A stretch of DNA of 28,061 bases from IMG/VR virus record IMGVR_UViG_3300036956_000151. One strand, written 5' to 3'. Source of the stretch: a virus (lineage: Duplodnaviria; Heunggongvirae; Uroviricota; Caudoviricetes). A program made the translations under genes and the position numbers. Shown here piece by piece: positions 4,736-19,534 of the stretch (positions within the stretch are counted from its first letter, which is position 1; each line of letters starts with the position of its first letter). The notes below the pieces were generated by a model. The model saw only the letters and a list, made by a program, of their open reading frames with translations. It was not told where the DNA came from and searched no databases.

Positions 4736-4768
4736 GCAGCGCAAGCGACGCCCGACCCCAAAGCGGCT

Positions 4769-5456: not shown

Positions 5457-5471
5457 ACGACGCGTGCGAGG

Positions 5472-5499
5472 GGAAGGAAGGAAGGAAGGAAGGAAGGAA
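5472..5499. repeat. (GGAA)7 tetranucleotide microsatellite
   Basis: Seven perfect GGAA units. Confidence 0.9.
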
Positions 5500-5771: not shown

Positions 5772-7745
5772 TTACTTGAGCCACAGCCAGCCCTCCCGAA
5801 GGACGATGCAGCCACGGTTCACAAGTCCGGTAATGGCAAGCTGCGCCCTGTAACGTTTCTGGTCCGGGTCACATGCAAGGCGGGCGCGGGTCTTGTCGAT
5901 AGCCTCTTCCAGTTCAACGCAGGGCCGGCCAGGAGGTCCGCCAGCTTCCCCGAAGTGCCGCGACTCTTTCAGCAGGTCGCGCAGTGCGTCGAGGATGATT
6001 CGCTGATTCCCGCCGGTCGGCAGCTTCACCCGCCCCACGGCATCGGCGGCGCGCTCTTCGGGAACGACGCAGCAGCTTGTGATTTCGTCGCCGTCCTCGT
6101 CGGCCCCGATTTCCACCACTTCCAGCCGAAACGGTTTTCCCAGGTCGTCATTGCCATCCTTGCTCTTCGCGGCCGTCCATTCCCGGCGGTCGTCGGTGCG
6201 GCTCACCTCGATGGCGGCATCAAGCGCAGCGTGAAGGCTGGAATGCCCCCGCAGGCCCTTGGACGCATCCTTGCCGGTGTGATGCACCAGCAGCACCAGC
6301 CCGCCAAGCTCCGCCTGTAGCGCCTTCGTCGCGGCGATGATTTCGCCCATTGCGGCGGAGTCGTTCTCGTCGGCACCCGGCGCGGCGCGGTTCAGCGTGT
6401 CGAGGGCCAACACGCCACCCGAGTAACCGGCAGCGCGGGCGGCGCTCACAAGGTCGGCGCGGTCGGCAGCTTTGCGGATGTCGAGCGGTTGCAGCAGGAA
6501 GCGGAATGCGCCGGCAAGTGGGCCGTGTTTCTCTTGGTGCGCCTGGACGCGTTGCGAGATGCCGGCCTCACCCTCAAGGGCAACATACAGCACTGGGGCG
6601 GCCTTCACGCGGCACCCGAACCACGGCCGGCCAGCGGCGACAGCGGCGAGCATGTCGAGCGCCAGGAAGGATTTGCCGGACCCGCTTGGGCCATACAACG
6701 CGGCAATCCCTTCCTCCGGGAGCACACCACGCACCCGCCAGCGGACAGGGGGCAGCGCGGCCAGTTCAGACGGTGCCAGCAGCCGGAAGCGTTGCGAGTG
6801 CTTCTTCGGATTGGCCAGCAGTGCGGCCAGGGCGTCGAGGCCGTCCCGCTGGTGCATGTCGTTGGCGTCAAAGTTGGCGGGCGAGCCTTCCGGCATTTCC
6901 ACCCATGCGGCGGCGGTGTCCTTGGCGATGCGGGCGCAATGCGACTCCTTGCCGGCATCGGCCACCAACACCCGGCGGGCCAGCGGGTAGCGGTCGGCCA
7001 GCGCCTTGGATGCGGCTTCCATCCGGCCGGCACCGAAGCAGACCGCGGCCGGCGCGTTCGCGGCCTGGTGGCAGCTCCACGCCTGCCCGACGCCCTCGCA
7101 CAGGTAGAGCGTGACGCCTGCGCCCTGGTGCGGGATGCGCCCCACCACGAACAGGCCGTCCATCGGCAGGCCGGGGGCGTTCAGTTTCTTGCCATCGGCC
7201 GGCGGGATGAATTGCGCGCTCTTCAGGGTGCCGTCAATCGCGTAGCACGGCACCACGAGATAGCCGGCCACCGCCTCGCGGGCGATGGTCAGCGGGCCGC
7301 CATAGACGCGCAGGCCGGCGGGTAGGCCATGCTTGCGGGCAATGTAGCCGTGTTCCGCCGTCGCTGGTGCGCAGGATGCCCACAGGGCGGCCACGTCGAG
7401 CGGCGGAGCCTTGGACGGGGCTTCGTGCATCCGGCGCTCGGTCGTGCGTTGTGGGCGGTTCTGGTAAGTCTGGCGCGGTGCGTCGTCGCTCCATCCAGCG
7501 GCGCGGGCCAGTGCGAAGAGCGTACCGGCCTGGATGCCGCCATCCTCGCGGATGCTCCGCCAGACGGCGCGTGCGTCGGCCTCGTTGCGATAGTTGCCGG
7601 CTCCGGCGCTCCAGTCATGGAAGTCCTCGAAGTCGAGGCCGGCAGCCTTTGCAGCCATGCCAGCCCGGACCCATTCGGCGCGTTCGGCACCGGGGTCGAG
7701 GGCGTGCAAGGCAAAGCGGGCGCGGTCAAACTCGCGGGCATCCAT
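5772..7745 (-). CDS. Primase-helicase-type replication protein, 657 aa (PriCT-like N-terminus, Toprim-like centre, RecA-type ATPase C-terminus); ORF-track N-terminal 71 aa rejected
   Basis: MDAREFDRARFALHALDP...GLDFEDFHDWSAG; CEGVGQAW and VLVADAGKE; Walker A YGPSGSGKSFLALD and VLLVHHTGKD; ATG overlaps upstream stop (ATGA). Confidence 0.85.
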   Translation of the reverse strand: MDAREFDRARFALHALDPGAERAEWVRAGMAAKAAGLDFEDFHDWSAGAGNYRNEADARAVWRSIREDGGIQAGTLFALARAAGWSDDAPRQTYQNRPQRTTERRMHEAPSKAPPLDVAALWASCAPATAEHGYIARKHGLPAGLRVYGGPLTIAREAVAGYLVVPCYAIDGTLKSAQFIPPADGKKLNAPGLPMDGLFVVGRIPHQGAGVTLYLCEGVGQAWSCHQAANAPAAVCFGAGRMEAASKALADRYPLARRVLVADAGKESHCARIAKDTAAAWVEMPEGSPANFDANDMHQRDGLDALAALLANPKKHSQRFRLLAPSELAALPPVRWRVRGVLPEEGIAALYGPSGSGKSFLALDMLAAVAAGRPWFGCRVKAAPVLYVALEGEAGISQRVQAHQEKHGPLAGAFRFLLQPLDIRKAADRADLVSAARAAGYSGGVLALDTLNRAAPGADENDSAAMGEIIAATKALQAELGGLVLLVHHTGKDASKGLRGHSSLHAALDAAIEVSRTDDRREWTAAKSKDGNDDLGKPFRLEVVEIGADEDGDEITSCCVVPEERAADAVGRVKLPTGGNQRIILDALRDLLKESRHFGEAGGPPGRPCVELEEAIDKTRARLACDPDQKRYRAQLAITGLVNRGCIVLREGWLWLK

Positions 7746-8194
7746 CACATCACCCCCAGCACGCGCACGAAGGCCGCGACAACGGCGGCGGTCACGGATG
7801 CAGCGGCGAAGACAACGAGCGCGTCGAGGCTGATGGAACCGCGTTGCTGTCGTGCGTTCAGGGCGGCAGCGGTTGCCGGGTGCTGGCGGTCGAGCGCGTA
7901 CTCGGTGATTGTGCTGCGGCAATGGGGGCGGCGGATGTCGCGCTTGCAAAACGCCCACCCGCCATACTCCAGCGACTTAACTGACGCGGCCAGCCGCCAC
8001 CCGTCGCGGTAGTCGGCCTGGTTCTGCGGGCCGGTCAGCAGCGCCTGAAGGGCTTCGTAAGCCCGGGTGTTGTCGTTCGGCCAGCTTGCAGCTTCAACAG
8101 GCGGCAGCGTCTCGGGAAAGAGGTCTTGGGCGTTATAATGGCGAGGCTTGTCCAGGGCGCTCGACTTCTTTTTGGGGGTCGGGCGCTTTTTCAT
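7745..8194 (-). CDS. Hypothetical protein, 149 aa, basic N-terminus and hydrophobic C-terminal helix; coupled to primase gene
   Basis: ATGA overlaps at both ends. Confidence 0.6.
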   Translation of the reverse strand: MKKRPTPKKKSSALDKPRHYNAQDLFPETLPPVEAASWPNDNTRAYEALQALLTGPQNQADYRDGWRLAASVKSLEYGGWAFCKRDIRRPHCRSTITEYALDRQHPATAAALNARQQRGSISLDALVVFAAASVTAAVVAAFVRVLGVM

Positions 8195-8520
8195 GCCGCA
8201 CCAGCCTTTCGGGCCTTCGCTTCGACGAGCGCCATTTCATTGGCAGCGAACTCCTGACCTGCGCTGCCGGCGGCCTCAATGACTTCGACCGGCAGGCGGT
8301 ACTGCGCGAAGGCGCACGACTCGCCGAAGCGGTTGGGACGTTGGATAGTCTCCTTCGCGACGCCCCAGCCCCATTTGGTCAGGAGGAAAACGACGGCGGC
8401 AGTCCGGTAGATGCCCAGCGTCCTCCAGCTTGCAATGGGGCCAATGGCATTGCCAGCCAGAAACGCAGCGAGCAGGCGGGCGCTCTGGGTGCCGTGCTTG
8501 GGGTAGGTGCCGGCCATCAT
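8191..8520 (-). CDS. Hypothetical protein, 109 aa
   Basis: Start overlaps upstream stop (TAATG); stop overlaps downstream start (ATGA). Confidence 0.6.
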   Translation of the reverse strand: MMAGTYPKHGTQSARLLAAFLAGNAIGPIASWRTLGIYRTAAVVFLLTKWGWGVAKETIQRPNRFGESCAFAQYRLPVEVIEAAGSAGQEFAANEMALVEAKARKAGAA

Positions 8521-8750
8521 TACGCCACCTCGCCAGAGGTAAGGGCCTCAACGGCCGCGGCGTCCCACAGCAAGAAGCGGTTGCGGCACTTGACCGGGCG
8601 CAGGCCGAAGTAATGCCCGTCACGGCACAGGGCGGCGCGCAAGGTCTGCGGGCGCACCTTCAGGACGGCGGCGGCCTCAATGGTGGAGTAGTTGCGCAGG
8701 ATGGACGCGATGTCCGTGCGCTTGGTGGTGGGTGTGTTTTGGTGTTGCAT
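8520..8750 (-). CDS. Small HTH DNA-binding protein, 76 aa, AlpA/excisionase-like; first gene of the replication operon
   Basis: STIEAAAVLKVRPQTLRAALCRDGHYFGLRPVKCRNRFLLWDAAAVEAL; AGGAGA SD; same motif pattern as the element B gene at 23916-24098. Confidence 0.7.
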   Translation of the reverse strand: MQHQNTPTTKRTDIASILRNYSTIEAAAVLKVRPQTLRAALCRDGHYFGLRPVKCRNRFLLWDAAAVEALTSGEVA

Positions 8751-8843
8751 TCGCTGGTTCTCCTGCTCGGAAAACCACCGTTGAGAGTCGCCGGATGCAA
8801 CTCAATCAACGCTGGCGAACGCAATGTGTTGCGCCGAAGTCTA

Positions 8844-8859
8844 TTAACAGCCGGCTGTT
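8844..8859. promoter_or_regulatory. Perfect 16-bp palindrome TAACAGCCGGCTGTTA in the promoter region of the element A replication operon
   Basis: Lies between the stop at 8863 and the HTH gene start at 8750. Confidence 0.35.
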
Positions 8860-8862
8860 ATG

Positions 8863-9456
8863 TTACCCGCCATTTCCAAGATGCTGATTTTTAAGGGTCT
8901 TTAGGCTGTTTAGAAATTTGCGCTCTTCGCTACCCCCCTCGGTTCTAAGTCCGTGCTCGTCAGTGAATACAACATACCCCGCGTCGCGCTGCACGACTCC
9001 ACGGCTCTCCAGTTTGTCCAGCATATCCGATGCAGTCAGGAGTCTGTTCTTGTCCCATATGGCCTTTGCCTCTAGTCGCCAGCGGATAGTAGCGGGCCGT
9101 CCTCCTTTGCGTACGACACGCTTCTGCGACGCGGACCTAGCCTGCTGTGCTCTTGCTGCTGCGGCGTAATGCTGCATCATCGGAGACAAGGGACCGACAG
9201 CAAGAATGGCAGACCTTGCAGCCGCAACGGACGCGGCGTGCGCAGCATCAACCATTGGCTGCATCCACTGACGCGTTTTTTCAGGCCACGTCTCCCTTAG
9301 AAGTCCAAGAGGCGGCTCCTGCAAAGGTAGGGTCAGCGAGCTTCTCAGCACCGACTCGAACACGGCGAGCTGGATTTCCTCGGCCCCGCGCCTGAAGTCA
9401 GCCGCGAATGATGCGGACTGACCTCCCATCCCCTGTTTTTTCAAATGCTTTGTCAT
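8863..9456 (-). CDS. Hypothetical protein, 197 aa; contains a GGRPA motif shared with the syntenic 252-aa protein of element B
   Basis: AAGGAG SD 6 nt upstream; directly preceded by conserved hairpin module 2. Confidence 0.6.
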   Translation of the reverse strand: MTKHLKKQGMGGQSASFAADFRRGAEEIQLAVFESVLRSSLTLPLQEPPLGLLRETWPEKTRQWMQPMVDAAHAASVAAARSAILAVGPLSPMMQHYAAAARAQQARSASQKRVVRKGGRPATIRWRLEAKAIWDKNRLLTASDMLDKLESRGVVQRDAGYVVFTDEHGLRTEGGSEERKFLNSLKTLKNQHLGNGG

Positions 9457-9477
9457 CGCGCTCCTTCAAGCGCCTTC

Positions 9478-9552
9478 AAAAGAGGCACCGCGCCAGGCGG
9501 GTGAAGGTTCCCGCTTTTCGGTTGGCCGACCTAGGCGCGGTGGTGGTACTCG
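9478..9552. terminator. Conserved nested-hairpin element (module 2): outer stem CACCGCGCC/GGCGCGGTG enclosing inner hairpin GCGGG-N8-CCCGC plus T4; terminator-like in both orientations; homologous copy at 25028-25104
   Basis: Near-identical flanks in both elements; inner stem differs by compensatory changes (GCGGG/CCCGC versus CGGGG/CCCCG). Confidence 0.45.
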
Positions 9553-9553
9553 G

Positions 9554-9934
9554 TCAGGCGGCAATCGCCTCATTCAAGGGACACGGCTGAATCAGCACGT
9601 CAGCCGGGAGGCCGAGGCCAGAAGACAGGCGGCGAATCATCGTCACCGACAGCGGGCGCGTCCGGTTCATGATGTCGGCCACCCTCCCCCGCGGGCCGAT
9701 GTAAGGCTCCAAGTCCTTGCGCGTCAATCCGCGGGACTCCATGACGTACTCAAGGAAGGCCACCGGGTCCGGGGCTTTAATCAGGAAGTGCGCCTTTTCG
9801 TAGGCTTCCACCAGCATGGCGAGCACCTCCAGGCGGTCGGCCTCGGGGCTTCCATCAGGGGCATCCCACAGGCGTTCGATATCGGCCAGGGCTTCGTTGT
9901 GCTCGGCTTCGGTTCGGATGGGCTTCAGTTCCAT
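9554..9934 (-). CDS. higA: HigA-family antitoxin (HTH), 126 aa
   Basis: Immediately downstream of the HigB-type toxin gene; AGGAG SD; C-terminal HTH-like segment LTRKDLEPYIGPRGRVADIMNRTRPLSVTMIRRL. Confidence 0.8.
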   Translation of the reverse strand: MELKPIRTEAEHNEALADIERLWDAPDGSPEADRLEVLAMLVEAYEKAHFLIKAPDPVAFLEYVMESRGLTRKDLEPYIGPRGRVADIMNRTRPLSVTMIRRLSSGLGLPADVLIQPCPLNEAIAA

Positions 9935-9942
9935 GGCGGCTC

Positions 9943-10236
9943 CTAGATGGTTTCAGCGTCTATCCGGTCGTACTCGGCATGAGTGCCCACGAAACGGATG
10001 AACATCATGGTGGAGGTGTAACGCACAGCCGCCACCAACCGGTAGTCATTGCCCTTGATGTTGAACACCACGCGGTTGTTCGCCAGAAAGCTGGCGTTCC
10101 GGTGCGCGGCCTTGATGTCGGCCGGGGTTTGCCAGGTGGCCCGGCTTGCCTCGGCGTACCAACCACGCAAAGGGGTTTCGGCTTGCGGATGCTTCTCCCA
10201 AAACTCGCGCAGTGCTCGCAGTGCAATGATGTGCAT
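9943..10236 (-). CDS. higB: HigB-family type II toxin (mRNA interferase), 97 aa
   Basis: MHIIALRALREFWEKHP...NNRVVFNIKGNDYRLVAAVRY...IRFVGTHAEYDRIDAETI; toxin-first order. Confidence 0.85.
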   Translation of the reverse strand: MHIIALRALREFWEKHPQAETPLRGWYAEASRATWQTPADIKAAHRNASFLANNRVVFNIKGNDYRLVAAVRYTSTMMFIRFVGTHAEYDRIDAETI

Positions 10237-10319
10237 GACTCAATCTAGCATGTTACCGTTTTGGTAGCAAACACTCAGGCTTTCACCACCCGCAGCCCGG
10301 CCGCCTGCTCTTCGCCCGG

Positions 10320-10604
10320 TCAGGCGGCGATGCGTGCCACGGGTGCCCGGTCCTTGGCGCGCTCGCCGGCTGTCCAGAGGTCGCGCTGCGTTTGCAGGCG
10401 CAGCCAGTAGCCGGGCGAGGTGCCTAGCGCCTCGTGCAGGCGCAGGTCCATATCGGCGGTGACGGCGGCATGCCCGTGCAGGATGCGGGACAACATCACC
10501 CGGCTGATGCCCACATGGGCGGCAAAGGCGGTCACGCTCATATCGAGGTCTTCCAGCCAGCCGGCCAGGATTTCGCCAGGGGTTGAAGGGTCGTGCATGT
10601 CCAT
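10320..10604 (-). CDS. HigA-like antitoxin (XRE-type HTH), 94 aa
   Basis: PGEILAGWLEDLDMSVTAFAAHVGISRVMLSRILHG...ITADMDLRLHEALGTSPGYWLRLQTQRDL; follows the killer-protein toxin gene. Confidence 0.8.
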   Translation of the reverse strand: MDMHDPSTPGEILAGWLEDLDMSVTAFAAHVGISRVMLSRILHGHAAVTADMDLRLHEALGTSPGYWLRLQTQRDLWTAGERAKDRAPVARIAA

Positions 10605-10615
10605 GATGTCGGGCC

Positions 10616-10894
10616 TCAGTGGTAATCCAGATAGTCCAGCAGTTCCACGTTTCCGCCATCGAAGCGGAACACAAGCCGCCAGTTGGCTTGCACCGTCATG
10701 GCGAGGAAGCCGGCGCGGTCGCCGGACAGGCCATGCAGGCGCCAGGACGGGCGGGCGAGGTCTTCCGGGCCGGCGGCGGCGTTCAGGGCGGTCAGCATTT
10801 CCCGTAGGCGCTTGGCGTGAATCGGCTGAATGCCGGCCTGCTTGCCGGTCAGGAAGAAGGCTTCAAGCCCCTTGTGTCGGAACGATAGAATCAT
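10616..10894 (-). CDS. RelE/ParE-superfamily toxin of the HigB killer-protein type, 92 aa
   Basis: MILSFRHKGLEAFFLTGKQAGIQPIHAKRLREMLTALNAA...LLDYLDYH. Confidence 0.85.
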   Translation of the reverse strand: MILSFRHKGLEAFFLTGKQAGIQPIHAKRLREMLTALNAAAGPEDLARPSWRLHGLSGDRAGFLAMTVQANWRLVFRFDGGNVELLDYLDYH

Positions 10895-10898
10895 AGTC

Positions 10899-10917
10899 TG
10901 TAAATCATAGCTTTACA
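10899..10917. promoter_or_regulatory. Inverted repeat TGTAAA-N7-TTTACA upstream of the toxin gene; likely TA operator/promoter
   Basis: Between toxin start (10894) and integrase stop (10926). Confidence 0.4.
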
Positions 10918-10925
10918 ATGTCCGC

Positions 10926-12242
10926 TCAGGTCACAACCCGCAACCCAGGCGCCTGCCCCTCGTCCGGCTGCTCGATGCCGGCCTGCTCCAGAATCCAGCC
11001 CTCTATCTTGATGTGCCACAGGGTCAGCAGGTCGAGCGGCCGGCGGCGATAGTGCTTCTCGGCCAAGGCGCTGGGCTTGTGCCCCTGAATCTGCGCCACC
11101 ACGCCGACGGGCACCTCGCACCACTCCGCCAGGGTGCCGAAGGAGCGGCGCAGGTCATGCAGCGAGAATGGCGGCAGGCCGGCGGCTTCCATCGCTTTGC
11201 GCAGGGGTTTGAGGACTTCCACGATACGGCCATCCGCGGCCGCAGGGCTTGAGAACACCCACTCATTCCGGCGCGGCAGAGAGGCCAGCAGCGAGGCGAC
11301 GAAGGGCGTCAGCGGGATGATGCGGCCCTCTTCCTCCACCTTGTCGGCGATGTGCAGGGACTTCCATTGAAAATCCACGTCAGCCCATTTCAGGCCGGCC
11401 AGTTCCTCGCGCCTCGCGCCGGTCAGGAGCAAGGTTTGCAGGTAGGCGGCGTGCACCGGGTTCCCCAGCTTGCGGACATGCTCGAACCACAGCGGCAATT
11501 GTTCGCGGCGCAGGCTGTCGCCTTTGGTCTTCACCGCCTGCACTTGGTCCCGCACTTCGCTGGTGCGGCAGGCATCCGCACGAACGAGGCCGGCATACTC
11601 CGGGCGCTCGGCACACCAGCCAAGGAAGGCGCGCACGAGGCGGAATATCTTTGCGGCCTGCGTCGCCCCGCGGGCGTTGTTGTCCTGCATCCATGCCGTG
11701 ATGCGTGCCGGGGTCAGGTCCAATAGGCGCACATGCAGCAGCGGATGTACCATGCCGGGCAAAGTGTATTCCCCCTGCCCAGCCTTGCGCCCTCGCGTGA
11801 TGCGCTCGCCGCCGGGCTTTATGGCCTGTGCATGGTCGCGCTGTGAGGACTCGCCCCACTTGTGCGAGCGGGCCAGAACATAGGCGGCCCATGCCTCGCC
11901 AACGGTCACTTCCTGCCGTGCGGACTCTTCCCGCTTGGCCTCGATGGCGGCGCGCTTGTCGGCCTTCTCTTGGCGCGGGTCGATGCCTTGGTCAATCAGG
12001 GTTTGCAGGCGGCGGGCTTCGGCGCGGGCTGCGTCAATGCCCCACGCGCGCACGTCGCCAATCGTGATGCGAAGAGCCTTGCCGTTCAGGCGGCTTTGGA
12101 AGATGAACCCGCGCGCCTCGCTGCCGGGTGTGGCACGCACTGCGAGGCCGGGCGCTTCCGTGTCCCACAGGAAGGCTTGAGCGGTGCCGGTCGGGCATTC
12201 AAATTCGCGGATGCGGCCGGCGGTCAGCTTGTTGCGTGCCAT
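10926..12242 (-). CDS. int: Tyrosine recombinase, P4-type integrase (element A); ATG at 12242 preferred over the ORF-track start at 12248
   Basis: ~438 aa; catalytic-domain blocks LTGARREELAGL, HDLRRSFGT, HKPSALAEKHYRRR; GGAGAA SD; adjacent to att copy 2. Confidence 0.9.
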   Translation of the reverse strand: MARNKLTAGRIREFECPTGTAQAFLWDTEAPGLAVRATPGSEARGFIFQSRLNGKALRITIGDVRAWGIDAARAEARRLQTLIDQGIDPRQEKADKRAAIEAKREESARQEVTVGEAWAAYVLARSHKWGESSQRDHAQAIKPGGERITRGRKAGQGEYTLPGMVHPLLHVRLLDLTPARITAWMQDNNARGATQAAKIFRLVRAFLGWCAERPEYAGLVRADACRTSEVRDQVQAVKTKGDSLRREQLPLWFEHVRKLGNPVHAAYLQTLLLTGARREELAGLKWADVDFQWKSLHIADKVEEEGRIIPLTPFVASLLASLPRRNEWVFSSPAAADGRIVEVLKPLRKAMEAAGLPPFSLHDLRRSFGTLAEWCEVPVGVVAQIQGHKPSALAEKHYRRRPLDLLTLWHIKIEGWILEQAGIEQPDEGQAPGLRVVT

Positions 12243-12256
12243 GTTCAAGTTCTCCG

Positions 12257-12287
12257 TGTAAGCGGCTCATGTAAGCAGCTTGTAAGC
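12257..12287. promoter_or_regulatory. Three TGTAAGC heptamers (12257, 12270, 12281) upstream of the element A integrase; candidate arm-type sites
   Basis: Direct repeats read from sequence; same heptamer at the left end (2037-2055). Confidence 0.4.
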
Positions 12288-12406
12288 GGATTCTAGAACA
12301 CGCTTCAATTTCCATCAACGTCAAAAACGGAATGAATGCTTTATTTTCAATGCCTTGCTGTTTTTATGAAACGCTATTCAATGTCAAAAAACCCCGTAAC
12401 CATTCA

Positions 12407-12502
12407 ACTCATAATCGCTTGGTCGCTGGTTCAAGTCCAGCACGGCCCACCATACGTATCAAGCACTTAGGCCAGCCTCACGAGGGCTGGCCTTTTGCTT
12501 TC
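12407..12502 (+). repeat. att direct repeat copy 2 (junction between element A and element B); tRNA 3' half only, no 5' half
   Basis: ACTCATAATCGCTTGGTCGCTGGTTCAAGTCCAGCACGGCCCACCA plus terminator; preceded by unrelated AT-rich sequence. Confidence 0.85.
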
Positions 12503-12510
12503 CGGCGCCG

Positions 12511-12529
12511 TGTAGCCACCATGTAGCCA
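12511..12529. promoter_or_regulatory. Two TGTAGCCA octamers at left end of element B; candidate arm-type sites
   Basis: Same motif at 27389-27425 (three copies, one inverted) upstream of the element B integrase. Confidence 0.4.
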
Positions 12530-12582
12530 GATTCGAGAAGTCCGCACAACCACATACAAAAGGCCCCATGCTGGAAGCCGGT

Positions 12583-12691
12583 GGAGGGAGCTATCGGCCT
12601 CCCCTCCTCCGCCGTGAGTGCGTGATGGCTCCGTTTTGAGCCATCGTCAGCAACGGCCGAAAGTAAAGGGTGGGCAGATTGTGCCCACCCT
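12583..12691. other. Three consecutive GC-rich hairpins (12583-12607, 12624-12646, 12665-12691) between att copy 2 and the Rha-like fragment
   Basis: Inverted repeats GGAGGGAG/CTCCCCTCC, GATGGCTC/GAGCCATC, AAGGGTGGGCA/TGCCCACCCTT. Confidence 0.3.
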
Positions 12692-12698
12692 TGGCGGG

Positions 12699-12830
12699 TC
12701 AGCAGCTCATGGGCTTCTCCTCAATTTGAGGAGAAGCAATCACGCCGCGCTCAAGCAAGGTTTCGATGGTGCGCTTCACGTTGTCGTGACGCTTCGGCCT
12801 GGTGCCGGCATGGGCGACTGATGCGAACAT
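12699..12830 (-). pseudogene. Decayed Rha-like N-terminal fragment, 43 codons; lacks the usual N-terminal helix
   Basis: Translation ...RPKRHDNVKRTIETLLERGVIASPQIEEK matches the element A ORF at 2657-2803; below the 60-aa ORF-track cutoff. Confidence 0.35.
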
Positions 12831-12847
12831 TGCTCGGGTCAGAACGA

Positions 12848-12872
12848 AGGGTGTCGCTATTCCCGACACCCT
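12848..12872. promoter_or_regulatory. Palindrome AGGGTGTCG-N7-CGACACCCT just upstream of the Rha-like fragment
   Basis: Shares GGTGTC/GACACC half-sites with the palindromes at 2597-2618 and 15443-15466. Confidence 0.35.
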
Positions 12873-13071
12873 TTAAAACCTGGTGAACGTGGGGCCTCGT
12901 TCGCAGAACGACACGCCCGGCCGCCGAGGGCCTGCGTACTGTGCAGTCCCTCTCCGGGTCAGAACTTGGGCCTCGTTCGCAGAAACGGCACCTGATGCGA
13001 ATGAACTACTTCATAGCCCGCAAACCCCGCGTGCCCTAGGATGAAGGCTCCTTTTCTTTCCTGATAGATCT

Positions 13072-13260
13072 ATGGGTCCGATCTCCAAACCGTCCAGAAT
13101 CAGCCAATGGCGCGCCACCACTGCCGCCGGCGAAACCGAAGTCTTCAACCTCAAAATAATCGCCGACGACTGGGCGGGCGTCGGTGGCACGGTCGAAGCC
13201 GTGAATGCTGCCGACCAGAAGGCATTGCAAGGGGGTGGCAAAACACCACCCCATGAATGA
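13072..13260 (+). CDS. Possible small protein, 62 aa, unknown
   Basis: GC-rich third codon positions and non-repetitive composition; no clear SD. Confidence 0.25.
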   Translation: MGPISKPSRISQWRATTAAGETEVFNLKIIADDWAGVGGTVEAVNAADQKALQGGGKTPPHE

Positions 13261-13298
13261 GAACCCCGGCGCGTGACGGGGGCTGGTGGTGAGTCGCG

Positions 13299-13589
13299 TT
13301 ACTGGGTCCGTGCGTGGCCGCTGGGTGGCGGCAGAATGTCCGACAGGGGCAAACCCTGCGCCCAGGCGTGCAACTCGGTAAGAAGCCAGCCTATCCGGTT
13401 GCTCGACGTCTTGCGGGGCGCTGGGAACGTTCCCTTCAGCACCTGTGCGGCGATGTTCGACGGGCTGAGTCCCACAATCGTGCAGGTGGTGTCCCGGTCC
13501 ACGATGACAGGATCGATGTGAATCACCCTGGTGACCCGCAGCGTTCCGCCGCTGGGCGTGCACGCGGGGATCTTCTTCGGCCGTCCCAT
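13299..13589 (-). CDS. alpA: AlpA-family phage transcriptional regulator, 96 aa
   Basis: GLSPSNIAAQVLKGTFPAPRKTSSNRIGWLLTELHAWAQ fits the AlpA pattern; start coupled to upstream stop. Confidence 0.75.
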   Translation of the reverse strand: MGRPKKIPACTPSGGTLRVTRVIHIDPVIVDRDTTCTIVGLSPSNIAAQVLKGTFPAPRKTSSNRIGWLLTELHAWAQGLPLSDILPPPSGHARTQ

Positions 13590-13590
13590 T

Positions 13591-14058
13591 TCAGGTGCTC
13601 CCGGGTGCGTGGGCGGTCGCCTGGCGGCCACCAACGGCACGCAGTTCGTCGGAGAGGCTTAAGGCCTCCCGGGCGAGCGCCTGAAAGTCTGCCTGTGCTG
13701 GGGCCGACCCCGCAAGAAACTGATTGATCCTCCGCATGAGCGAATCTTGGCGCTGCTGGAGGTCCGCCAGGCCGGCAAGGATCACGTCCGCAAGGGGTGG
13801 GAGTTCTGCGCGATTCTCCCAGTCGTCAGCACGGCCGAGGAGGTAATCAGCTGAAACACCATAGACCCGCGCCGCATCGGCAAGCAGCTGGGGCGTGATT
13901 CCCTTTGGGTAGTTCGGATGCTCGGCGCGGGTCAAACGGGATGCACTCTTGATGCCAAGCCGCCGCGCGGCCTCGTCCGTGCCCAGGCATGCGATCTCGC
14001 GGGCGGATTTCAAGCGCTGGCCGACGATGCACTGCGCTACGGGTGGTCTCTTGCTCAT
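13591..14058 (-). CDS. XRE/Cro-CI-type HTH regulator, 155 aa
   Basis: HTH-like segment and motif ARVYGVSADYLLGRADD; paralogous to 20619-21212; AAGGA SD. Confidence 0.7.
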   Translation of the reverse strand: MSKRPPVAQCIVGQRLKSAREIACLGTDEAARRLGIKSASRLTRAEHPNYPKGITPQLLADAARVYGVSADYLLGRADDWENRAELPPLADVILAGLADLQQRQDSLMRRINQFLAGSAPAQADFQALAREALSLSDELRAVGGRQATAHAPGST

Positions 14059-14093
14059 GGTGGTGTCCTTCTCAATTCCAGCGTTTCAGGGGG

Positions 14094-14119
14094 CTGTGCG
14101 CCCGGTTGAAGGCGCACAG
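14094..14119. promoter_or_regulatory. Inverted repeat CTGTGCGCC-N8-GGCGCACAG between the 173-aa gene and the XRE regulator; hairpin or operator
   Basis: 9-bp perfect stems. Confidence 0.35.
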
Positions 14120-14135
14120 ATCCATCCCGCGGGTG

Positions 14136-14657
14136 TCAGGCGGCGTCGCGGCGATAGTTGCTGCCCACGTCTTCCGCTGTGCCGTTGACGAGATCCTGCA
14201 CGGTGCTGGCCATGTCGTGGATCGTCAGCAGGGTGCTATCGAGGTGCGGGCGCAGCGACTCAAGCTGGCCAGAGCCCGCGGCGGCCTTGGTGACCGCGGC
14301 AACGCCCGCGATCTTTCTTGCAGCCTCTTGAACGTAGAGATCCATCAGGTTAGCCGCGGTCTGCAGCTCACGAACCTTGGTCGGGGCGTTGCGGGAGGGG
14401 CAGAAGGCGTAGTCCGTGTCCTGGCAACCTACCACCGTGGCCTGTGCCTTGATATCTGCAGCGGAATCGCGAGCAAGGCCGATGATCGCGTCCATCGCGG
14501 TGCCAGTGCCGGCCGCATCGTCAGACTTAAGGGCGCCTTGTGCCGTGCGCACGAGGCCCATGATTGCGTCGGTGGCCTGTTGCGAATGGCGGTCAATCAG
14601 CTCGACGGTCTTCATCAGGGTGGCGAGGTTGGTGTTCTTGATGGTGGTGGTGGTCAT
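14136..14657 (-). CDS. Hypothetical protein, 173 aa, mostly helical
   Basis: GGAG SD; start 2 nt after upstream stop. Confidence 0.6.
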   Translation of the reverse strand: MTTTTIKNTNLATLMKTVELIDRHSQQATDAIMGLVRTAQGALKSDDAAGTGTAMDAIIGLARDSAADIKAQATVVGCQDTDYAFCPSRNAPTKVRELQTAANLMDLYVQEAARKIAGVAAVTKAAAGSGQLESLRPHLDSTLLTIHDMASTVQDLVNGTAEDVGSNYRRDAA

Positions 14658-14659
14658 GG

Positions 14660-15028
14660 TCAGGCGCTCCAGGCAAAGGAAAGACGATAGGCTGCTACGG
14701 GACCGGCAAGCCGGCGGATGGTGCGGTACATCGAGAGGGACGTGGCGAGGCGAGCGCGGCCGGGACGGCGCGCGGTGCGATCAGCGGCGGCGAGGGCCTG
14801 CTGTGCGGCCTCGAGCAGAGGGGCCGGCAGGAAGCTGTCAGCGCTGGTCGGACGCACGGGCGGGTAATCCATCGTCTCGGTGACGATGGCGCGCAGGGCG
14901 GACACGGGTGACGGTGCAGCAGGACGGGCACGGCCGATGCGGCGATGCGGGCCGCGAACAAGGGCGGGGCTGTGTTTGGGGCGTGAGGTGCTGCAGAGTG
15001 CGGGCGCACTGGGGGCGTGGGTAGCCAT
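14660..15028 (-). CDS. Possible protein, 122 aa, Pro/Ala/Arg-rich; start at the position homologous to the element A gene 3054-3371
   Basis: AAGGAA SD; low-complexity composition makes coding status uncertain. Confidence 0.35.
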   Translation of the reverse strand: MATHAPSAPALCSTSRPKHSPALVRGPHRRIGRARPAAPSPVSALRAIVTETMDYPPVRPTSADSFLPAPLLEAAQQALAAADRTARRPGRARLATSLSMYRTIRRLAGPVAAYRLSFAWSA

Positions 15029-15235
15029 GGTGATGTTCCTTATTTGCGGTCTTGTTCTCCGCTACCCAGCCGCCAAGCTGGGTGAGCAGAACCGTGCAGG
15101 TTGGCGGACCGGAATAAGGACCGGCAGGGTTTCCCCTCCCGCACGGCCCCGCCCAATGAGGCGATACCATGCTACGGACGTAAAAAAACCGCGCAGTGCG
15201 GCGGTTGTCCGCCTTATTTACCCGGGCCGCCAAGC
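15029..15235 (-). promoter_or_regulatory. Conserved structured leader (module 1), element B copy
   Basis: Homologous to 3372-3580; includes hairpin CCGC-N5-GCGG followed by A7 (terminator-like on the minus strand). Confidence 0.4.
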
Positions 15236-15442
15236 CCGTATCACCGTTGTTTGCAGCGACGAAAATATGATGCGCCTGGGCGCCGCTGGTGGTCAAGCAC
15301 TTATTTTGCATGTGTGGCGCCGGAGGGGAGGTGGACACATGAATCATGGGCGCCCGAGGACGGACACGGTAGGTGTCATTTCGGCCGGCGACACCCGCCT
15401 AAAATGGGTGGCCGCGGTAAGTCGAGCACGTCAGGCCGCCGA

Positions 15443-15466
15443 GGTGTCCTCAGTTTTGAGGACACC
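15443..15466. promoter_or_regulatory. Perfect palindrome GGTGTCCTC-AGTTTT-GAGGACACC; operator-like
   Basis: Homologous to the site upstream of the element A Rha-like ORF, but no Rha-like ORF follows here. Confidence 0.4.
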
Positions 15467-15553
15467 GTCACCAATGTGCAAATCTGCACAATATCCAGAC
15501 CCACGCGGCTGCCCTGGATGAAGCCGTCTGCGTCGCTTCTGAGTTTCATCGGA

Positions 15554-16459
15554 TCAGGCCTTCATGAAGGTGTCGAGCTGGGTGAAGGTCATCTGCAGCT
15601 CTGCCAAGGCGTCTTCGCGCCGGGACAAACTGAGCTCGAGGTTAGCCGGTCGAAAATTGCCGATATCCTCATAACCGCCGCGGTTGCTGCCCTTGGTCAC
15701 AAAGGCGTGCACGATCTTGATCCGCACCGCGTAATTTCCGGGAACTCCGACGGTGCCATCCTCGGCCGAGACGGCGGCTTGGTGATCGCGAAACCAGCGC
15801 TTGAGCGTGCCCACCTTGTCGTCGGTCGCCGTCATGCGCAGTTCCATCGGATCGCTTCCGGTGACTGCATCCAGCGTAGCCCCCCCGACCTTCCGTTTCT
15901 CGCCGGTGAGCGTGAAAGGCGCGTAATCCAGATCGGTCACGAACATATTGAAGGGCTGCGAGCTGTCACCCGAAAGTGCGCTTGACACCTCGATCAGGAA
16001 CAGATTCTTTCGGGCCCGCGCGGTGTTTATCGACTCCTCGAAGATCGTCCGGGCCTCAGTAGGGCTCAGGCCTCCGAAAAGGGGCGTAGGACGTCCCCAG
16101 TAGGTAGCCTGGGAAGACACCCCGCCCATACCCGGTATCAGCTTGTCCAGCGCCCCGGAATCGAGCAGGCGCATGCCGGCGCTGTTCCAGTCTCCGGCCA
16201 TCAGGTCGCCGGCAATCCGGCTTGCGGCATCGATCCGGCCGCGGAGCTTCATCGGGATGGCTTTGTTCACCTGCGCCATGGCGGCATTCTTCGCCATGCC
16301 AACACCAATATTGGCGACAGTGTTTGCCAGGATGCCACCGCCAAGCGCACCCGCCGCGCTCTTGGCTACGCTTCCCAGGGCGGAATCCAGGCTGGAAGAA
16401 ATTCCGCCCATCAAGCCCTTGGATGCGAGTGTCTTGCTCACGCCGTTATAGAGGGACAT
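15554..16459 (-). CDS. Hypothetical protein, 301 aa; N-terminal ~70 aa Gly/Ala/Ser-rich with glycine-zipper-like spacing, then a globular domain
   Basis: MSLYNGVSKTLASKGLMGGISSSLDSALGSVAKSAAGALGGGILANTVANIGVGMAKNAAMAQV...; start 5 nt after upstream stop. Confidence 0.65.
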   Translation of the reverse strand: MSLYNGVSKTLASKGLMGGISSSLDSALGSVAKSAAGALGGGILANTVANIGVGMAKNAAMAQVNKAIPMKLRGRIDAASRIAGDLMAGDWNSAGMRLLDSGALDKLIPGMGGVSSQATYWGRPTPLFGGLSPTEARTIFEESINTARARKNLFLIEVSSALSGDSSQPFNMFVTDLDYAPFTLTGEKRKVGGATLDAVTGSDPMELRMTATDDKVGTLKRWFRDHQAAVSAEDGTVGVPGNYAVRIKIVHAFVTKGSNRGGYEDIGNFRPANLELSLSRREDALAELQMTFTQLDTFMKA

Positions 16460-16464
16460 AGGCT

Positions 16465-16632
16465 TTACTCCCCGCTTCCGCCGAATCCGCCAGGCTTCTT
16501 CCCGCCCGGTGTGCCGCCGAATCCACCACCTCCACCACCACCACCAAACCCGCCTCCGCCGCCGGCACGCGTGAGGCTCTTTACGGGCTCGCCAAGCAGG
16601 AAGCCGGCGGCGTCGCTTCGGATCGCTGCCAT
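16465..16632 (-). CDS. Gly-rich small protein, 55 aa
   Basis: MAAIRSDAAGFLLGEPVKSLTRAGGGGGFGGGGGGGGFGGTPGGKKPGGFGGSGE; coupled at both ends (TGAcATG and TAAagcctATG); not in the ORF track because under 60 aa. Confidence 0.45.
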   Translation of the reverse strand: MAAIRSDAAGFLLGEPVKSLTRAGGGGGFGGGGGGGGFGGTPGGKKPGGFGGSGE

Positions 16633-16633
16633 G

Positions 16634-16900
16634 TCAGGTTTTCCCGGCAGGGCGTGCGGCGTCGAGAAGCGCGACGGCGGCGCCTACTCGAGCTTCGGCG
16701 GGGGCTGCAGGGTCTGCGGCCACCTCGGCCAGGGCGGCGACAGCAAGGGCGGCATGCTGGGCGGCGCGGCGCTGCAGGCCGGGTGAAGCCGGAGGGCGGC
16801 CGGCTCCGGTGCGGGCGCCGCCATGAGCGTTTGTCGTAGTGGGCATGCTTGAATCCTCGTGATGCCCGGGCGGCACGGCGGCCACCCGGTGGGAAATCAT
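16634..16900 (-). CDS. Possible protein, 88 aa, Ala/Pro-rich
   Basis: ATGA overlap with upstream gene; low-complexity composition. Confidence 0.35.
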   Translation of the reverse strand: MISHRVAAVPPGHHEDSSMPTTTNAHGGARTGAGRPPASPGLQRRAAQHAALAVAALAEVAADPAAPAEARVGAAVALLDAARPAGKT

Positions 16901-17160
16901 TTCCAGTTCTTGGCGACGCGGGCAATCGACTCAATGGGAGCGAGCGGGACCACCTTGAAACCGGCCGGAAGGTGGGACGGATTTTTGGTCTTGAGGAACA
17001 GCGTCAACTTCGCAATCTCCGCCTCCGCGCTCTTGGCTCGAAGTCGATCCGCTGCAGGGACGTGGTGAGCGCCGGAGTTATCCAGGAGCTGCGCAGGGCC
17101 GCTCAAGTCTAAGAGTCGGCGGGCGGCTGCGGCCATCTGGTCGGCCAGTGAATCAGCCAT
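16897..17160 (-). CDS. Hypothetical protein, 87 aa
   Basis: MADSLADQMAAAARRLLDL...; overlaps upstream stop (ATGGCTGA) and downstream start (ATGA). Confidence 0.5.
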   Translation of the reverse strand: MADSLADQMAAAARRLLDLSGPAQLLDNSGAHHVPAADRLRAKSAEAEIAKLTLFLKTKNPSHLPAGFKVVPLAPIESIARVAKNWK

Positions 17161-17800
17161 TTGCGACCGCCGGCCGGAAGGTGATGCCGGGGACCGCGGG
17201 GCGGGGGGCGAAGTCCTCGGGCAGGGCCGACGCATCACGGGTGCGCAGGAAGGTGCCCAAGGTTTCCACCTCGGCGGCAAGCCGGGCCTGCTCGTCCCGA
17301 AGGTCCGCGGAGCGCTGGGCATTGTCGTCCGCGAGTTTCTTCGTCAGGCCGGTGATTTCAGCAGCGGAGAGGCCGGCGGCCTCGTATTTTGCGCGAGTGG
17401 CCCCGGCGATGCCCGCCACGTACGCGAGTTCCGCGGGAATGTTCTCCAGTCGCGCGGTGCCCTCCAAGACACGCTGGGCCGCCTCGGTGAGAAGGGGAGC
17501 CAGGCGGGCGCGCTCCGCGGACTCGGCCTCTTTAACCTTGTCGCTGATGAATGCCAGGTTCGCGAAGAGCTCGCCAAACTCGTCGGCCAGAATCGCGAGC
17601 GCATCGACCACACGGCCAGGGTGCCGCTGAACGGCAAGGAAGCAAATTGCCACCGGGCCGATGTCGGCCAGATTGGTGCGCAGGCGGGTCAGCAGGGCTT
17701 CAGCGGCGGCCATCGATGCCGGATCGGCACGCAGGGCACGCGCGTCGGCAGCGATCTCGGCCGGGGTGTAGTCGTTGGTGTTGGTGGTGTCGGCGATCAT
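17153..17800 (-). CDS. Hypothetical protein, 215 aa, helical/coiled-coil-like; first gene of a five-gene coupled operon
   Basis: GAGG SD; operator-like repeats directly upstream. Confidence 0.65.
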   Translation of the reverse strand: MIADTTNTNDYTPAEIAADARALRADPASMAAAEALLTRLRTNLADIGPVAICFLAVQRHPGRVVDALAILADEFGELFANLAFISDKVKEAESAERARLAPLLTEAAQRVLEGTARLENIPAELAYVAGIAGATRAKYEAAGLSAAEITGLTKKLADDNAQRSADLRDEQARLAAEVETLGTFLRTRDASALPEDFAPRPAVPGITFRPAVANG

Positions 17801-17812
17801 TTCGGGGCCTCA

Positions 17813-17849
17813 CAAGTTGAAAACTTGATTATTGGGGCCCAAAACTTGA
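17813..17849. promoter_or_regulatory. Operator/promoter-like repeats: palindrome CAAGTT-GAA-AACTTG and direct repeat AAAACTTGA x2 in an AT-rich stretch
   Basis: Upstream of the 215-aa gene. Confidence 0.35.
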
Positions 17850-17918
17850 ATAAATCGGGCGTTTTCCGGGTTCGTTGCGAGCTTCCCTAGGGGGTCGCCG
17901 CAGGTCGGACGACGCCTT

Positions 17919-18608
17919 TCATGGGGCGTCGTTCCAGCGTTTGTTGACCTGCACTACGACCGGGTAGCCGGACGGGTCAGAGGCATCGCCGGGCGTTCCC
18001 TGCCCGTCGTTCGGGTCTGTGTCGGCCGGGCCATCGTAGAGCGGGATTGAAGCCTTCAGCGTGAGATCAATGACCAGCATCGTCAGGTTCTTCGCGTCGG
18101 TTGGAATGGAACTGGCTGGCACATCGGGCGACTCCACCTGCACCGGCCATTCCGTCGCTACACCGGCATGCGTGAAGGTCGCAGGGAAGCGCCGGCCGTG
18201 CACCGTGTCCAGGTACAGAAGGAACTGAGAGGCTATCGAACTGGCCGTGCCGGTGTCGTGCGCAAAGATGGCGATCTGTGCCCGAATGTCACCGGCCGCC
18301 ACCCGCAGCCCGAAAAGCCGTTCTTTCGCATCGCCCGGGATCATTACCGGGATGCTGTCGGCGAGCTGGCGCGTGAAGTCCCGGCCGGTGGGCATGTAGT
18401 CCTTGGCCATGGCAACCAGAATTACCGGCATCTCCGGCGGCATCGTAGTTGCGCTGTCGGTGTCGTTCTTCTGCCAGGCTGCAAGCATCTCCTCCACGGC
18501 ATCAATCATGCATGCGGGAGCCCAAAGAACTGATTTCTTGAGCCCCCGCGTGGTGAATTTCTGCAGGGCTGGCGTGGTGGGGACCAAAGAGGCGTAAAAC
18601 GAGCCCAT
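17919..18608 (-). CDS. Hypothetical protein, 229 aa; internal ATG with GGGGGA SD preferred over the ORF-track start at 18644
   Basis: Divergent from the KilA-N gene; no recognisable motif. Confidence 0.55.
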   Translation of the reverse strand: MGSFYASLVPTTPALQKFTTRGLKKSVLWAPACMIDAVEEMLAAWQKNDTDSATTMPPEMPVILVAMAKDYMPTGRDFTRQLADSIPVMIPGDAKERLFGLRVAAGDIRAQIAIFAHDTGTASSIASQFLLYLDTVHGRRFPATFTHAGVATEWPVQVESPDVPASSIPTDAKNLTMLVIDLTLKASIPLYDGPADTDPNDGQGTPGDASDPSGYPVVVQVNKRWNDAP

Positions 18609-18676
18609 AAATCCCCCAAATCCAATGCGGACAGGTTTGAGCATGGCGCGAAACCGTTGAAAGCGAAGCCTCGAGA

Positions 18677-19351
18677 ATGTCAGCGGGGACGAGGTGGGGA
18701 AGGGCTGGATTTCCCGAAGTCGCCATTCGTACCGATGCCGAGGGCCGCTACTGCCTGAATGATCTGCACAAGGCTGCTGGCGACCTGCCGAAGGATCAGC
18801 CGGCCAAATATTTCGCCAATCAACAAGCGAAAGACCTGATCTCCGAAATCGGAGATCACTCTGTTCATGTGGTCCGTGGCTATGGGAAGGAGCAAGGCAC
18901 CTACGTCTGCAAGGAACTGGTTTACGCCTACGCCATGTGGATCAGCCCAGCCTTCAGCCTGAAAGTGATTCGCGCCTACGATGCCATCGTGCGCGGCGAC
19001 TTCGGATCGGAATACCTCCCGGCCATCCTTCACGAAATTGACCAGCGCCTTTCGATCCGGCTGGTTGATCTTGAGGCCGCCATCGAAACCCGCATTCACG
19101 GCGAGCTCGCCAAGCAGCGCACCGGCATCCGCCACGGCGTCACCGCCGGCCAGGTATGGCACGAACACGGCTTCCCGGCTGATGCCGGAGGATTCGCCGG
19201 GGTCGTAGCTGTCGTTGGTCGCCACTACAAGGCCGTGACGATGGCTGGTGAAGCCCTGAAATCAGTTCAGGGCATGCGCTTTGGCTCGATTCGCAGCCCT
19301 TCGCGCACTGCGAAACCTACGGTGATGTACGGTGAATCTTGGGCATTCTGA
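18677..19351 (+). CDS. KilA-N domain protein, 224 aa
   Basis: RYCLNDLHKAAG...YFANQQAKDLISEI...GTYVCKELVYAYAMWISPAFSLKVIRAYDA matches the KilA-N signature; one of very few plus-strand island genes. Confidence 0.75.
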   Translation: MSAGTRWGRAGFPEVAIRTDAEGRYCLNDLHKAAGDLPKDQPAKYFANQQAKDLISEIGDHSVHVVRGYGKEQGTYVCKELVYAYAMWISPAFSLKVIRAYDAIVRGDFGSEYLPAILHEIDQRLSIRLVDLEAAIETRIHGELAKQRTGIRHGVTAGQVWHEHGFPADAGGFAGVVAVVGRHYKAVTMAGEALKSVQGMRFGSIRSPSRTAKPTVMYGESWAF

Positions 19352-19430
19352 GCTTTCACTGGTCGCCTTTTCGGCCGCGCTATTCAGTCGATTTCCCTGT
19401 GTTCACGCGGGATTGAGGCGGGTCGAAGGT

Positions 19431-19482
19431 TTCCGCGGAAGCGGGGAGAAACTTTCGCGAATCGGGAAACTTTCGCCCCGCT
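19431..19482. repeat. Palindrome TTCCGCGGAA, direct repeat GAAACTTTCGC x2 and stem GCGGGG/CCCCGC followed by TTTT; terminator-like region after the KilA-N gene
   Basis: Read directly between convergent genes. Confidence 0.3.
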
Positions 19483-19534
19483 TTTCCACCGCCATGGATC
19501 AGCCTTGGTGGTGCGGTTTCGGACGGCTGGATCC

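Follow-up and report, generated by a model that had tools for sequence, protein, structure and literature searches.

Organization of the locus

The window, i.e. the whole 28,061-nucleotide stretch of viral DNA analysed here and in itself an entire JGI metagenome contig, opens with rpoD (15-1892), followed by a tRNA gene with the anticodon CAU (1902-1978). A direct repeat of 119 nt, consisting of the 3' half of this tRNA and of its downstream terminator hairpin, is found in three copies (1933-2051, 12407-12525, and 27557-27675), and these att copies delimit two tandem integrative elements, A (about 2052-12406) and B (about 12526-27556). The second copy (12407-12525, plus strand) forms the boundary and is shared by both elements, in agreement with the two elements, A and B, of the first-pass annotation; the tRNA terminator copied into it (TTTGCTTTCC) lies at 12469-12493 on the plus strand. 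The att repeat (1933-2030, 12407-12505, and 27557-27655) is 77% identical over 91 nt to the attP region of coliphage 186, a region annotated as tRNA-Ile, so that both tandem elements use the tRNA(CAU) site known from this phage.

Each element carries at its end a P4-type integrase gene (int) on the minus strand, at 10926-12248 in A and at 26041-27369 in B, and both contain a C4-type antisense RNA and an int-alpA RNA. Judging from their sequence, two tandem CC(G/A)TGTAGCCA repeats at 12508-12529, with the same pair at 27404-27425, would be the arm-type sites of integrase B and mark the true left end of this element, while a TGTAAGC pair (2037-2055 and 12270-12288) could play the same role in A. 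The members of the AlpA cluster provide an indirect link to a Zoogloea-like host.

Several features accompany this arrangement. In element A, the sequence CCTCCCCAAAACTCCCCA(A/C)A is repeated in tandem at 5664-5730, the two copies being separated by 42 bp, and could represent iterons or a promoter element. In B, whose genes lie nearly all on the minus strand, a HigB/HigA-like toxin-antitoxin pair (25382-25983) adjoins int, and a 301-aa protein (15554-16459) matches phrog_24337 as well as, with a weaker score, a tail-tube family. Genes for a capsid or a terminase were not seen, and B has the appearance of a satellite or of a prophage in degradation. The C4 RNA of B (15078-15160) scores 48.1 bits, barely over the 45-bit threshold, and is followed downstream by genes of 81 aa, 173 aa, an HTH protein (155 aa), and an AlpA-like protein (96 aa). 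In other viral contigs (L071, L073, L080, and L130), the c4-a1b1 / isrK / C4 RNA cluster is found directly upstream of Bro-N antirepressor genes, and the antirepressor slot behind the C4 RNA of B may have been replaced.

Position and folding strength of the hairpins

The left arm of B (about 12526-13070) appears as a non-coding and hairpin-rich region of ~550 bp, the outer end of which would be the hairpin stretch under study. The three inverted repeats that had been noted there were recovered at the same coordinates by an inverted-repeat search. H1 consists of imperfect G-rich and C-rich arms of 10 nt (12579-12588/12602-12611; 90% complementary, one mismatch) around a 13-nt spacer, with no U tract on either strand. 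H2 (12624-12631/12638-12645, minus strand) has perfect 8-nt arms, a 6-nt loop, and no U tract, and sits inside a conserved block of ~40 nt. H3 (12666-12676/12682-12692, minus strand) has perfect 11-nt arms and a 5-nt loop; together with its minus-strand U-rich tract CUUUACUUUCGG, which corresponds to positions 12655-12667 of the plus strand, it covers 12655-12692. A weak fourth hairpin, H0 (12562-12579, minus strand), abuts H1 and is followed by TTTTGTATGT on the minus strand, and further hairpins lie just outside the range first noted, at 12713-12737, 12847-12873, and 12926-12952.

Folding of the 191-nt stretch gives a z-score of about -4.3 on both strands, to which the individual hairpins contribute unequally. 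Taken alone, H3 reaches -23.2 kcal/mol (z -4.8), a value attained by none of 200 shuffled sequences, and H2 reaches -15.3 kcal/mol (z -3.3; 1/200 shuffles as good). H1, at -20.4 kcal/mol, has a z-score of only -1.0 and is equalled by 31/200 shuffles, meaning that a fold of this strength is already expected from its G/C-rich composition, and H0 has a z-score of +0.3. H1 is thus probably a compositional accident of an element-specific segment close to att. A reading of H1 as a cos site of the P2/186 type, suggested by a stretch (GGCGGAGGAGGGGAGG) that loosely resembles the P2 cohesive end, was dropped as unsupported since H1 had no match in the phage and plasmid searches made with 12526-12705. 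The three hairpins are real, but they do not constitute one unit or one structure.

With att copy 2 at 12407-12525 and the arm repeats of B at 12508-12529, the hairpins fall inside B. H1-H3 lie 55-165 bp within this element and beyond its integrase arm repeats, and not exactly at the junction between the elements as had been proposed.

A truncated rha-type gene next to H3

The 11-bp perfect stem of H3 lies, as first described, right after a stop codon: the TGA (12699-12701) of a 56-aa minus-strand ORF (12699-12869) is 6 nt away. This ORF is a decayed fragment of a Rha-family antirepressor gene. Its conserved island (12702-12794, minus strand) encodes KRHDNVKRTIETLLERGVIASPQIEEKP, i.e. residues ~26-53, which align by tblastn with 58% identity to the Ant protein of Cronobacter phage ENT47670, a protein with Pfam Phage_pRha and ANT domains, and the 85 nt underlying the island have counterparts in 530 phage records, with a DNA identity of about 83%. 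The earlier designation of a decayed Rha-like fragment is therefore borne out. Decay is apparent from the replaced N-terminus, from a 51-nt deletion in the related elements L028, L033, L041, and L042, and from a stop codon that appears in the window's version. The complete Phage_pRha domain (PF09669) has ~90 residues, and neither the 56-aa ORF nor the 91-aa ORF of a related element (L048) gave any Pfam match. Pfam and PHROG scans of the small ORFs in 12618-13260 returned nothing except phrog_15709 for the rha fragment.

The extent of the Rha homology bears on the origin of the hairpins. Intact Rha proteins go on as ...TAGRP..YVF.GE.GKRDSIIVVAQ, while the lineage of the window runs into H3 instead, and a tblastn search of the read-through peptide against 50,697 phages gave alignments only up to ...EEKP(MS). 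Rha homology consequently ends 9 nt before H3, which rules against H3 and H2 being surviving Rha coding sequence.

The island itself contains a perfect 12-bp palindrome (12713-12737; z -4.9) that encodes SPQIEEK. It lies within the most conserved stretch of Rha/Roi/Ant genes, and in phage rha/ant genes (L147-L226) 10-11 of its 12 pairs are formed, compared to about 6 under synonymous resampling. Element A keeps this palindrome (2747-2771) with changes on both arms. An independent assembly, the JGI contig Ga0377231_0001172 (15.6 kb; L001/L004), is 100% identical to the window from 12804 on. Its assembly stops inside the Rha island, at 12804, and not at att, which may be due to an inverted second island in A (2690-2728 versus 12794-12756, 90%).

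A module shared with relatives and with element A

The left ends of relatives were collected by protein-anchored searches in wastewater, digester, and sediment metagenomes. H3 and H2 occur in the same relative place behind a truncated rha gene in eight distinct sequences (L028/29, L033, L041, L042, L048, L059, L060, and L061), so that the module is present in at least 8 metagenomic elements having different downstream DNA; the H2 stem is identical in L028, L033, L042, L048, L059, L060, and L061. These relatives are homologous to the window only as far as 12620, where H2 has its outer edge, thereby assigning H1 to a lineage-specific segment close to att, and no copy of H1 or H0 was found in any fetched locus of a relative, both being present in this element only. 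Three continuations are seen beyond 12620: cargo genes in L028, among which a 237-aa ORF converges on H2; in L048, a putative tRNA-Leu-type 3' fragment (recognised by eye, ARAGORN calling no tRNA gene on this locus) and then another integrase; and unrelated DNA in L059 and L061. L036, L040, and L062/63 are devoid of the whole module, and their homology ends at a repeated motif, TTCTGCGAACGAGGCCC.

Element A possesses its own copy of the module in the opposite orientation (2657-2881, plus strand), 770 bp from att. It comprises a rha fragment of 48 aa (2657-2803), in which both the ATG and the first helix are intact, a hairpin placed directly after the TGA (H3A, 2804-2828; z -3.7), and an H2-like block (2862-2881), all on the plus strand. 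Upon comparison of the window with itself, DNA similarity between A and B is limited to int, att, the C4 and int-alpA RNAs, and the module. Since the shared segments include the module in inverted form, the tie of the hairpins to the A/B junction is accidental. The position of the hairpins at a junction, which had been singled out as notable, thus loses its weight, H3 and H2 recurring in relatives next to other downstream DNA and, in A, far from att. Besides, A and B would read the H2 block in different frames and have nonetheless kept it, placing its conservation at the nucleotide rather than at the protein level; from the sequences compared, this would reflect constraint or recency at the nucleotide level.

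These data raise the question of whether the module is a small regulatory cassette, in which the Rha-like HTH peptide would be a real gene and H3 and H2 its 3' UTR or a 3'-derived small RNA, for example stabilising the RNA or binding a protein. The conservation between A and B of the unit formed by the rha fragment, H3, and H2, the nucleotide-level conservation of the H2 block in different frames, the intact start and first helix of the A copy with its stop directly before the hairpin, and the L059 relative, which has a good ribosome-binding site (AAGGAG) and encodes a 113-aa Rha-like peptide intact at its N-terminus, would fit such a cassette. However, most relatives, like B, either carry a different N-terminus or have lost the island. 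H2 is not part of the minimum-energy fold in A and is invariant among relatives, without covariation. In addition, no sigma-70-like promoter site was found near the hairpins, and a search of Rfam 15 over 12300-13300 gave no family at the gathering score nor at E<=10, except noise (at best 18.5 bits against a threshold of 61). Both results also weigh on the small RNA put forward in the first-pass annotation, which is still a candidate. Such a cassette is on the whole improbable.

A second question concerns mobility. The arm is rich in small rearrangements: the region 12835-12985 contains TTCTGCGAACGAGGCCC twice (12892-12908 and 12968-12984) in addition to the hairpins at 12847-12873 and 12926-12952, and CGGGTCAG occurs three times (12695, 12835, and 12955). 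In L033, the inner stem of H3 is replaced by one hairpin of the 12835-12985 stretch. Facing this arm, the plus-strand ORFs 12883-13044 and 13072-13260 are in one frame, separated by a TAG at 13042-13044; in relatives the region 12883-13260 holds called genes of 70-101 aa, and the two ORFs may be an interrupted small gene.

The relatives differ by the presence or absence of whole hairpin units, short direct repeats (CGTTC microhomology) being found at the edges of the indels, and a hairpin of the form GGGTCTGC..GCAGACCC occupies two different positions in different relatives. Clustered, GC-rich, and extragenic, the hairpins, for which a REP-like unit had been considered, might then be REP-like or miniature mobile palindromes scattered in the host genome. 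The copy numbers speak against it: the H3 stem, with any loop, was recovered from 16 genomes among 185,579 species representatives and is single-copy in each of them, H1 and H2 have no match in 72,556 plasmids or 50,697 phages, and in all fetched loci H1, H2, and H3 are found solely at the homologous place. When viral contigs were scanned for exact copies of H2 or of the U-tract linker, there were zero matches, and no RAYT (IS200/IS605-like) transposase was noticed among the annotated ORFs of the window. With a single-copy H3 stem and no Rfam match, the REP and known-RNA readings are left without support, and scattered mobile palindromes are a very improbable origin for the cluster.

Maintenance of pairing in H3

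The common form of H3 is AAGCGTGGGCAcaatcCGCCCACCCT(T/C), and its variation among relatives generally preserves a stem. The window itself has two changes, both restoring pairing; L041 shows a double change from G-C to A-T; L033 has a different, perfect 10-bp inner stem; and two GC<->CG swaps distinguish the A and B copies. In L060, the stem is degraded. In the alignment of the 8 sequences, two pairs are changed on both sides, and the observed covariation score is reached by 5/500 shuffles. Nevertheless, imperfect DNA palindromes are known to be corrected by quasipalindrome template switching, so that two-sided changes alone are no proof of selection. H2 shows no covariation among relatives, and its invariance says nothing about structure. 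Behind H3, all relatives retain the U-rich tract, including those with a swapped stem.

Terminator potential and direction of transcription

Terminator potential was evaluated for each strand from the stem energy, in kcal/mol, and from a TransTermHP-style tail score, a more negative score being better. On the minus strand, H3 has a stem of -17.5 and a tail of -4.06, the latter equal to that of the tRNA terminator of att copy 2 (plus strand, stem -19.1, tail -4.06) located 180 bp away, and H0 combines a stem of -6.2 with a tail of -4.65. H1 and H2 are not terminator-like on either strand, with tail scores of -2.0 or weaker. Regarding geometry, H3 (about -20 kcal/mol) and H2 fit a GC-rich stem of 5-14 bp with a loop of 3-8 nt, while the 13-nt spacer of H1 is outside the usual range of terminator loops. 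H3 is also correctly placed downstream of a gene on the same strand, 6 nt past the TGA of the rha fragment in B and directly after the TGA in A, although the A copy has no U tract. Moreover, in about 12 unrelated genomes the GC stem of H3 is found as an obvious terminator, flanked by an A tract and a T tract.

The strand asymmetry is clear-cut: on the plus strand, the tails of H1-H3 score from -1.5 to -2.95, no U tract is present, and none is usable. The first-pass annotation had suggested stacked terminators insulating B from transcription out of A. The terminator part holds for H3 and weakly for H0, on the minus strand only, and falls for H1 and H2; the insulating role does not survive. Apart from the location of the hairpins between the last gene of A and the first genes of B, the data run counter to a plus-strand stack shielding B: no U tract follows any of the three hairpins on that strand, the adjacent int of A (10926-12248) is a minus-strand gene, the predicted tRNA terminator of att copy 2 (12469-12493) already bars plus-strand transcription from B, and the same hairpins occur in relatives having no upstream element. 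This arrangement, already contradicted by the sequence itself, is hardly credible.

Being terminator-like on the minus strand only, H3 and H0 would instead stop transcripts leaving B toward att and A. The reading that we favour, albeit tentatively and with a probability of roughly 45%, is that H3 is a terminator of leftward transcripts leaving B, located at the end of a small inherited module. This module would consist of an N-terminal rha-type fragment, H3, and then the H2 block, and would be carried around by the element family. H3 would act as a Rho-independent terminator for minus-strand RNA, namely the transcript of the rha fragment and read-through from the leftward genes of B, with H0 possibly serving as a weak back-up. 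Stopping at H3 would keep this RNA from crossing att into the int gene of element A. If B were alone, unstopped transcription would proceed through the tRNA and rpoD in antisense, and in the excised circle the int gene of B would be reached.

The hairpins, their conservation, the compensatory changes, and the strand asymmetry of the U tract are observed in the sequences, while we only infer that termination takes place at H3 and matters there. The traffic to be stopped may be modest: a scan of 11800-13600 gave no upstream promoter-like site on the minus strand, and the leftward alpA operon has its own terminator-like hairpin (13264-13281), so that little RNA may reach H3. The model is also weakened by the A copy of H3, which lacks a U tract, by the degraded stem of L060, by an ORF that runs uninterrupted across H3 and H2 in L048, L059, L060, and L061, and by template switching, through which two-sided changes can arise in a palindrome without selection. 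The terminator model leaves H1 and H2 unexplained. As a feature of the window, the hairpin cluster is largely ordinary. An inherited module and lineage-specific filler together form, as a mosaic, what had looked like one cluster of hairpins at a junction, and the modest finding is that the element appears to close off outward transcription in this way.

A hairpin inside Bro-N antirepressor genes

The search for H3 beyond the element family led to a different class of antirepressor genes. Four exact matches of the H3 stem, as well as all phage and plasmid matches, lie inside Bro-N antirepressor genes, H3-like copies being found in Bro-N ORFs of Microbulbifer, Corynebacterium, Bordetella, and Pseudomonas phages and of Arsenophonus plasmids. 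The Pfam Bro-N domain (PF02498) was confirmed for three of the proteins (from L025, L020, and the Bordetella phage). In these genes, the palindrome encodes ...DEDEK-GG(H/Q)x(V/L)PT-LGG..., and its site, a D-E-K-G-x-x-I-V-x-T-(L/P)-G-G stretch, is presumably the segment coding for the 'wing' of the domain.

A sample of 80 Bro-N genes was then drawn from IMG/VR viral contigs (L067-L146) with protein patterns devoid of the palindrome, none of them being chosen for similarity to H3, and 40 distinct genes, those of standard spacing, were aligned over an 11-pair helix formed by the 27 nt that start at the Lys codon. In these 40 genes, 83% of the cells of the helix are paired, compared to 66.5% in shuffles, and the covariation score is 0.39 versus 0.093, with 0/500 shuffles reaching the observed values and slid controls giving 0.124 or less. 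Adding five seed genes selected with H3 yields 45 core sequences, which form 9.3 of the 11 pairs, compared to 6.3 under synonymous resampling and to 7.4 if each gene receives an arm from another one. The amino-acid pairs encoded by the two arms track codon complementarity (L/Q, R/P, T/R, T/S, V/D, V/H, and V/Y), and base-pair covariation overrides amino-acid identity in 40/40 aligned genes. In 36 further, divergent Bro-N genes, the minimum-energy fold mostly has a stem at the same site, as judged by eye and without a shuffle control. No Rfam family covers this hairpin, and no published description of it was found in a full-text literature search.

Regarding its possible role, 34 of the 40 genes have terminator-like tails on the antisense strand. 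However, synonymous resampling reproduces nearly the same U-richness (-3.96 against -4.07), which follows from the D/E/K codons and thus gives no independent support to an antisense terminator; that reading was set aside. The roles that come into consideration for the hairpin are an antisense-facing terminator, a site of RNA processing or binding, or a recombination hotspot setting the boundaries of antirepressor mosaics. If functional, it would be a so far unrecognised element of antirepressor genes, serving regulation or recombination, and if kept by template switching only, an unusually clean natural case of a self-perpetuating coding palindrome. The SPQIEEK palindrome of Rha-type genes offers a parallel. 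Bro-N being a very abundant phage DNA-binding domain, its hairpin may matter more than the H1-H3 cluster itself.

Whether H3 descends from this hairpin bears directly on how the module is understood. The module could be non-functional debris, a graveyard of antirepressor fragments left by recombination between elements and phages, in which a relic of the Bro-N hairpin was joined by microhomology to a truncated rha gene and persists through youth or through self-correction of the palindrome by template switching. In favour of this, the profile built from the 40 Bro-N genes matches 12665-12705 on the plus strand with an E-value of 9e-6, versus 0.19 in the reverse orientation, and exact or near-exact copies of H3 are carried by Bro-N ORFs of phages and plasmids. 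The decay of the rha fragment described above, the indel polymorphism in hairpin units along the arm, and the many truncated Rha fragments of 50-68 aa ending near ...EEKPTAGR in databases point in the same direction. Yet the arms of a palindrome are not independent, which makes the E-value optimistic, and the GGCGG part of the match could equally represent the Rha codons R-P-A on the other strand. The A copy of H3 (2804-2828) has no match to the Bro-N profile, and the long Bro-N profile finds no Bro-N sequence outside 12665-12698. A larger Bro-N gene relic extending over H2 and H1 was rejected on the same ground, the long DNA and protein profiles matching only this interval, whose conceptual peptide gave no Bro-N match in Pfam. 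Finally, A and B have kept very few DNA segments in common, and that the module is one of them argues for constraint.

Taken together, these data give homology between H3 and the Bro-N hairpin roughly one chance in three, and an origin of the module as mere debris, although a possible account of the locus, is somewhat unlikely. Rather unlikely, too, is that H3 represents a free-standing copy of an undescribed cis-element, namely the hairpin carried inside Bro-N antirepressor genes. Should that hairpin be functional, its persistence at this locus in the absence of the gene would show that it acts on its own.

Comparison with known systems

Compared to intrinsic (Rho-independent) terminators, H3 read on the minus strand shares the GC-rich stem of 9-11 bp, the 5-nt loop, the U-rich tract, and the position behind a stop codon. 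It differs in that its U tract is interrupted (UUUACUUUC) and that its homologue in element A has none, and such a tract is lacking on both strands of H1 and H2. An analogy may also be drawn with the sib/tI system of phage lambda, in which a hairpin located across att from int retroregulates int through RNase III processing. Both arrangements combine strong hairpins near att with a joined partner that changes on integration and excision, but the hairpins would here be upstream of int in the excised circle, and not downstream.

With REP and BIME sequences, the cluster shares imperfect GC-rich palindromes, their location in non-coding DNA, and their presence or absence among relatives. Whereas such repeats exist in tens to hundreds of copies, the hairpins are not multi-copy where tested, and are found at one locus of one element family.

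Two further likenesses concern antirepressor genes. The flanking ORF shares KRHDNVKRTIE.L.ERG.I.SPQIEEKP with hundreds of Rha/Roi/Ant genes (Phage_pRha), which are found in truncated form in temperate phages, but it keeps only about 30-56 residues, with homology extending to ...GRP(A), and has no C-terminal ANT/KilAC domain. As for the coding hairpin of Bro-N (PF02498) genes, H3 has the same form, AAAGGGT-NNN-CA-loop-TG-NNN-ACCCTTGGCGG, but stands free, with no other Bro-N coding sequence around it.
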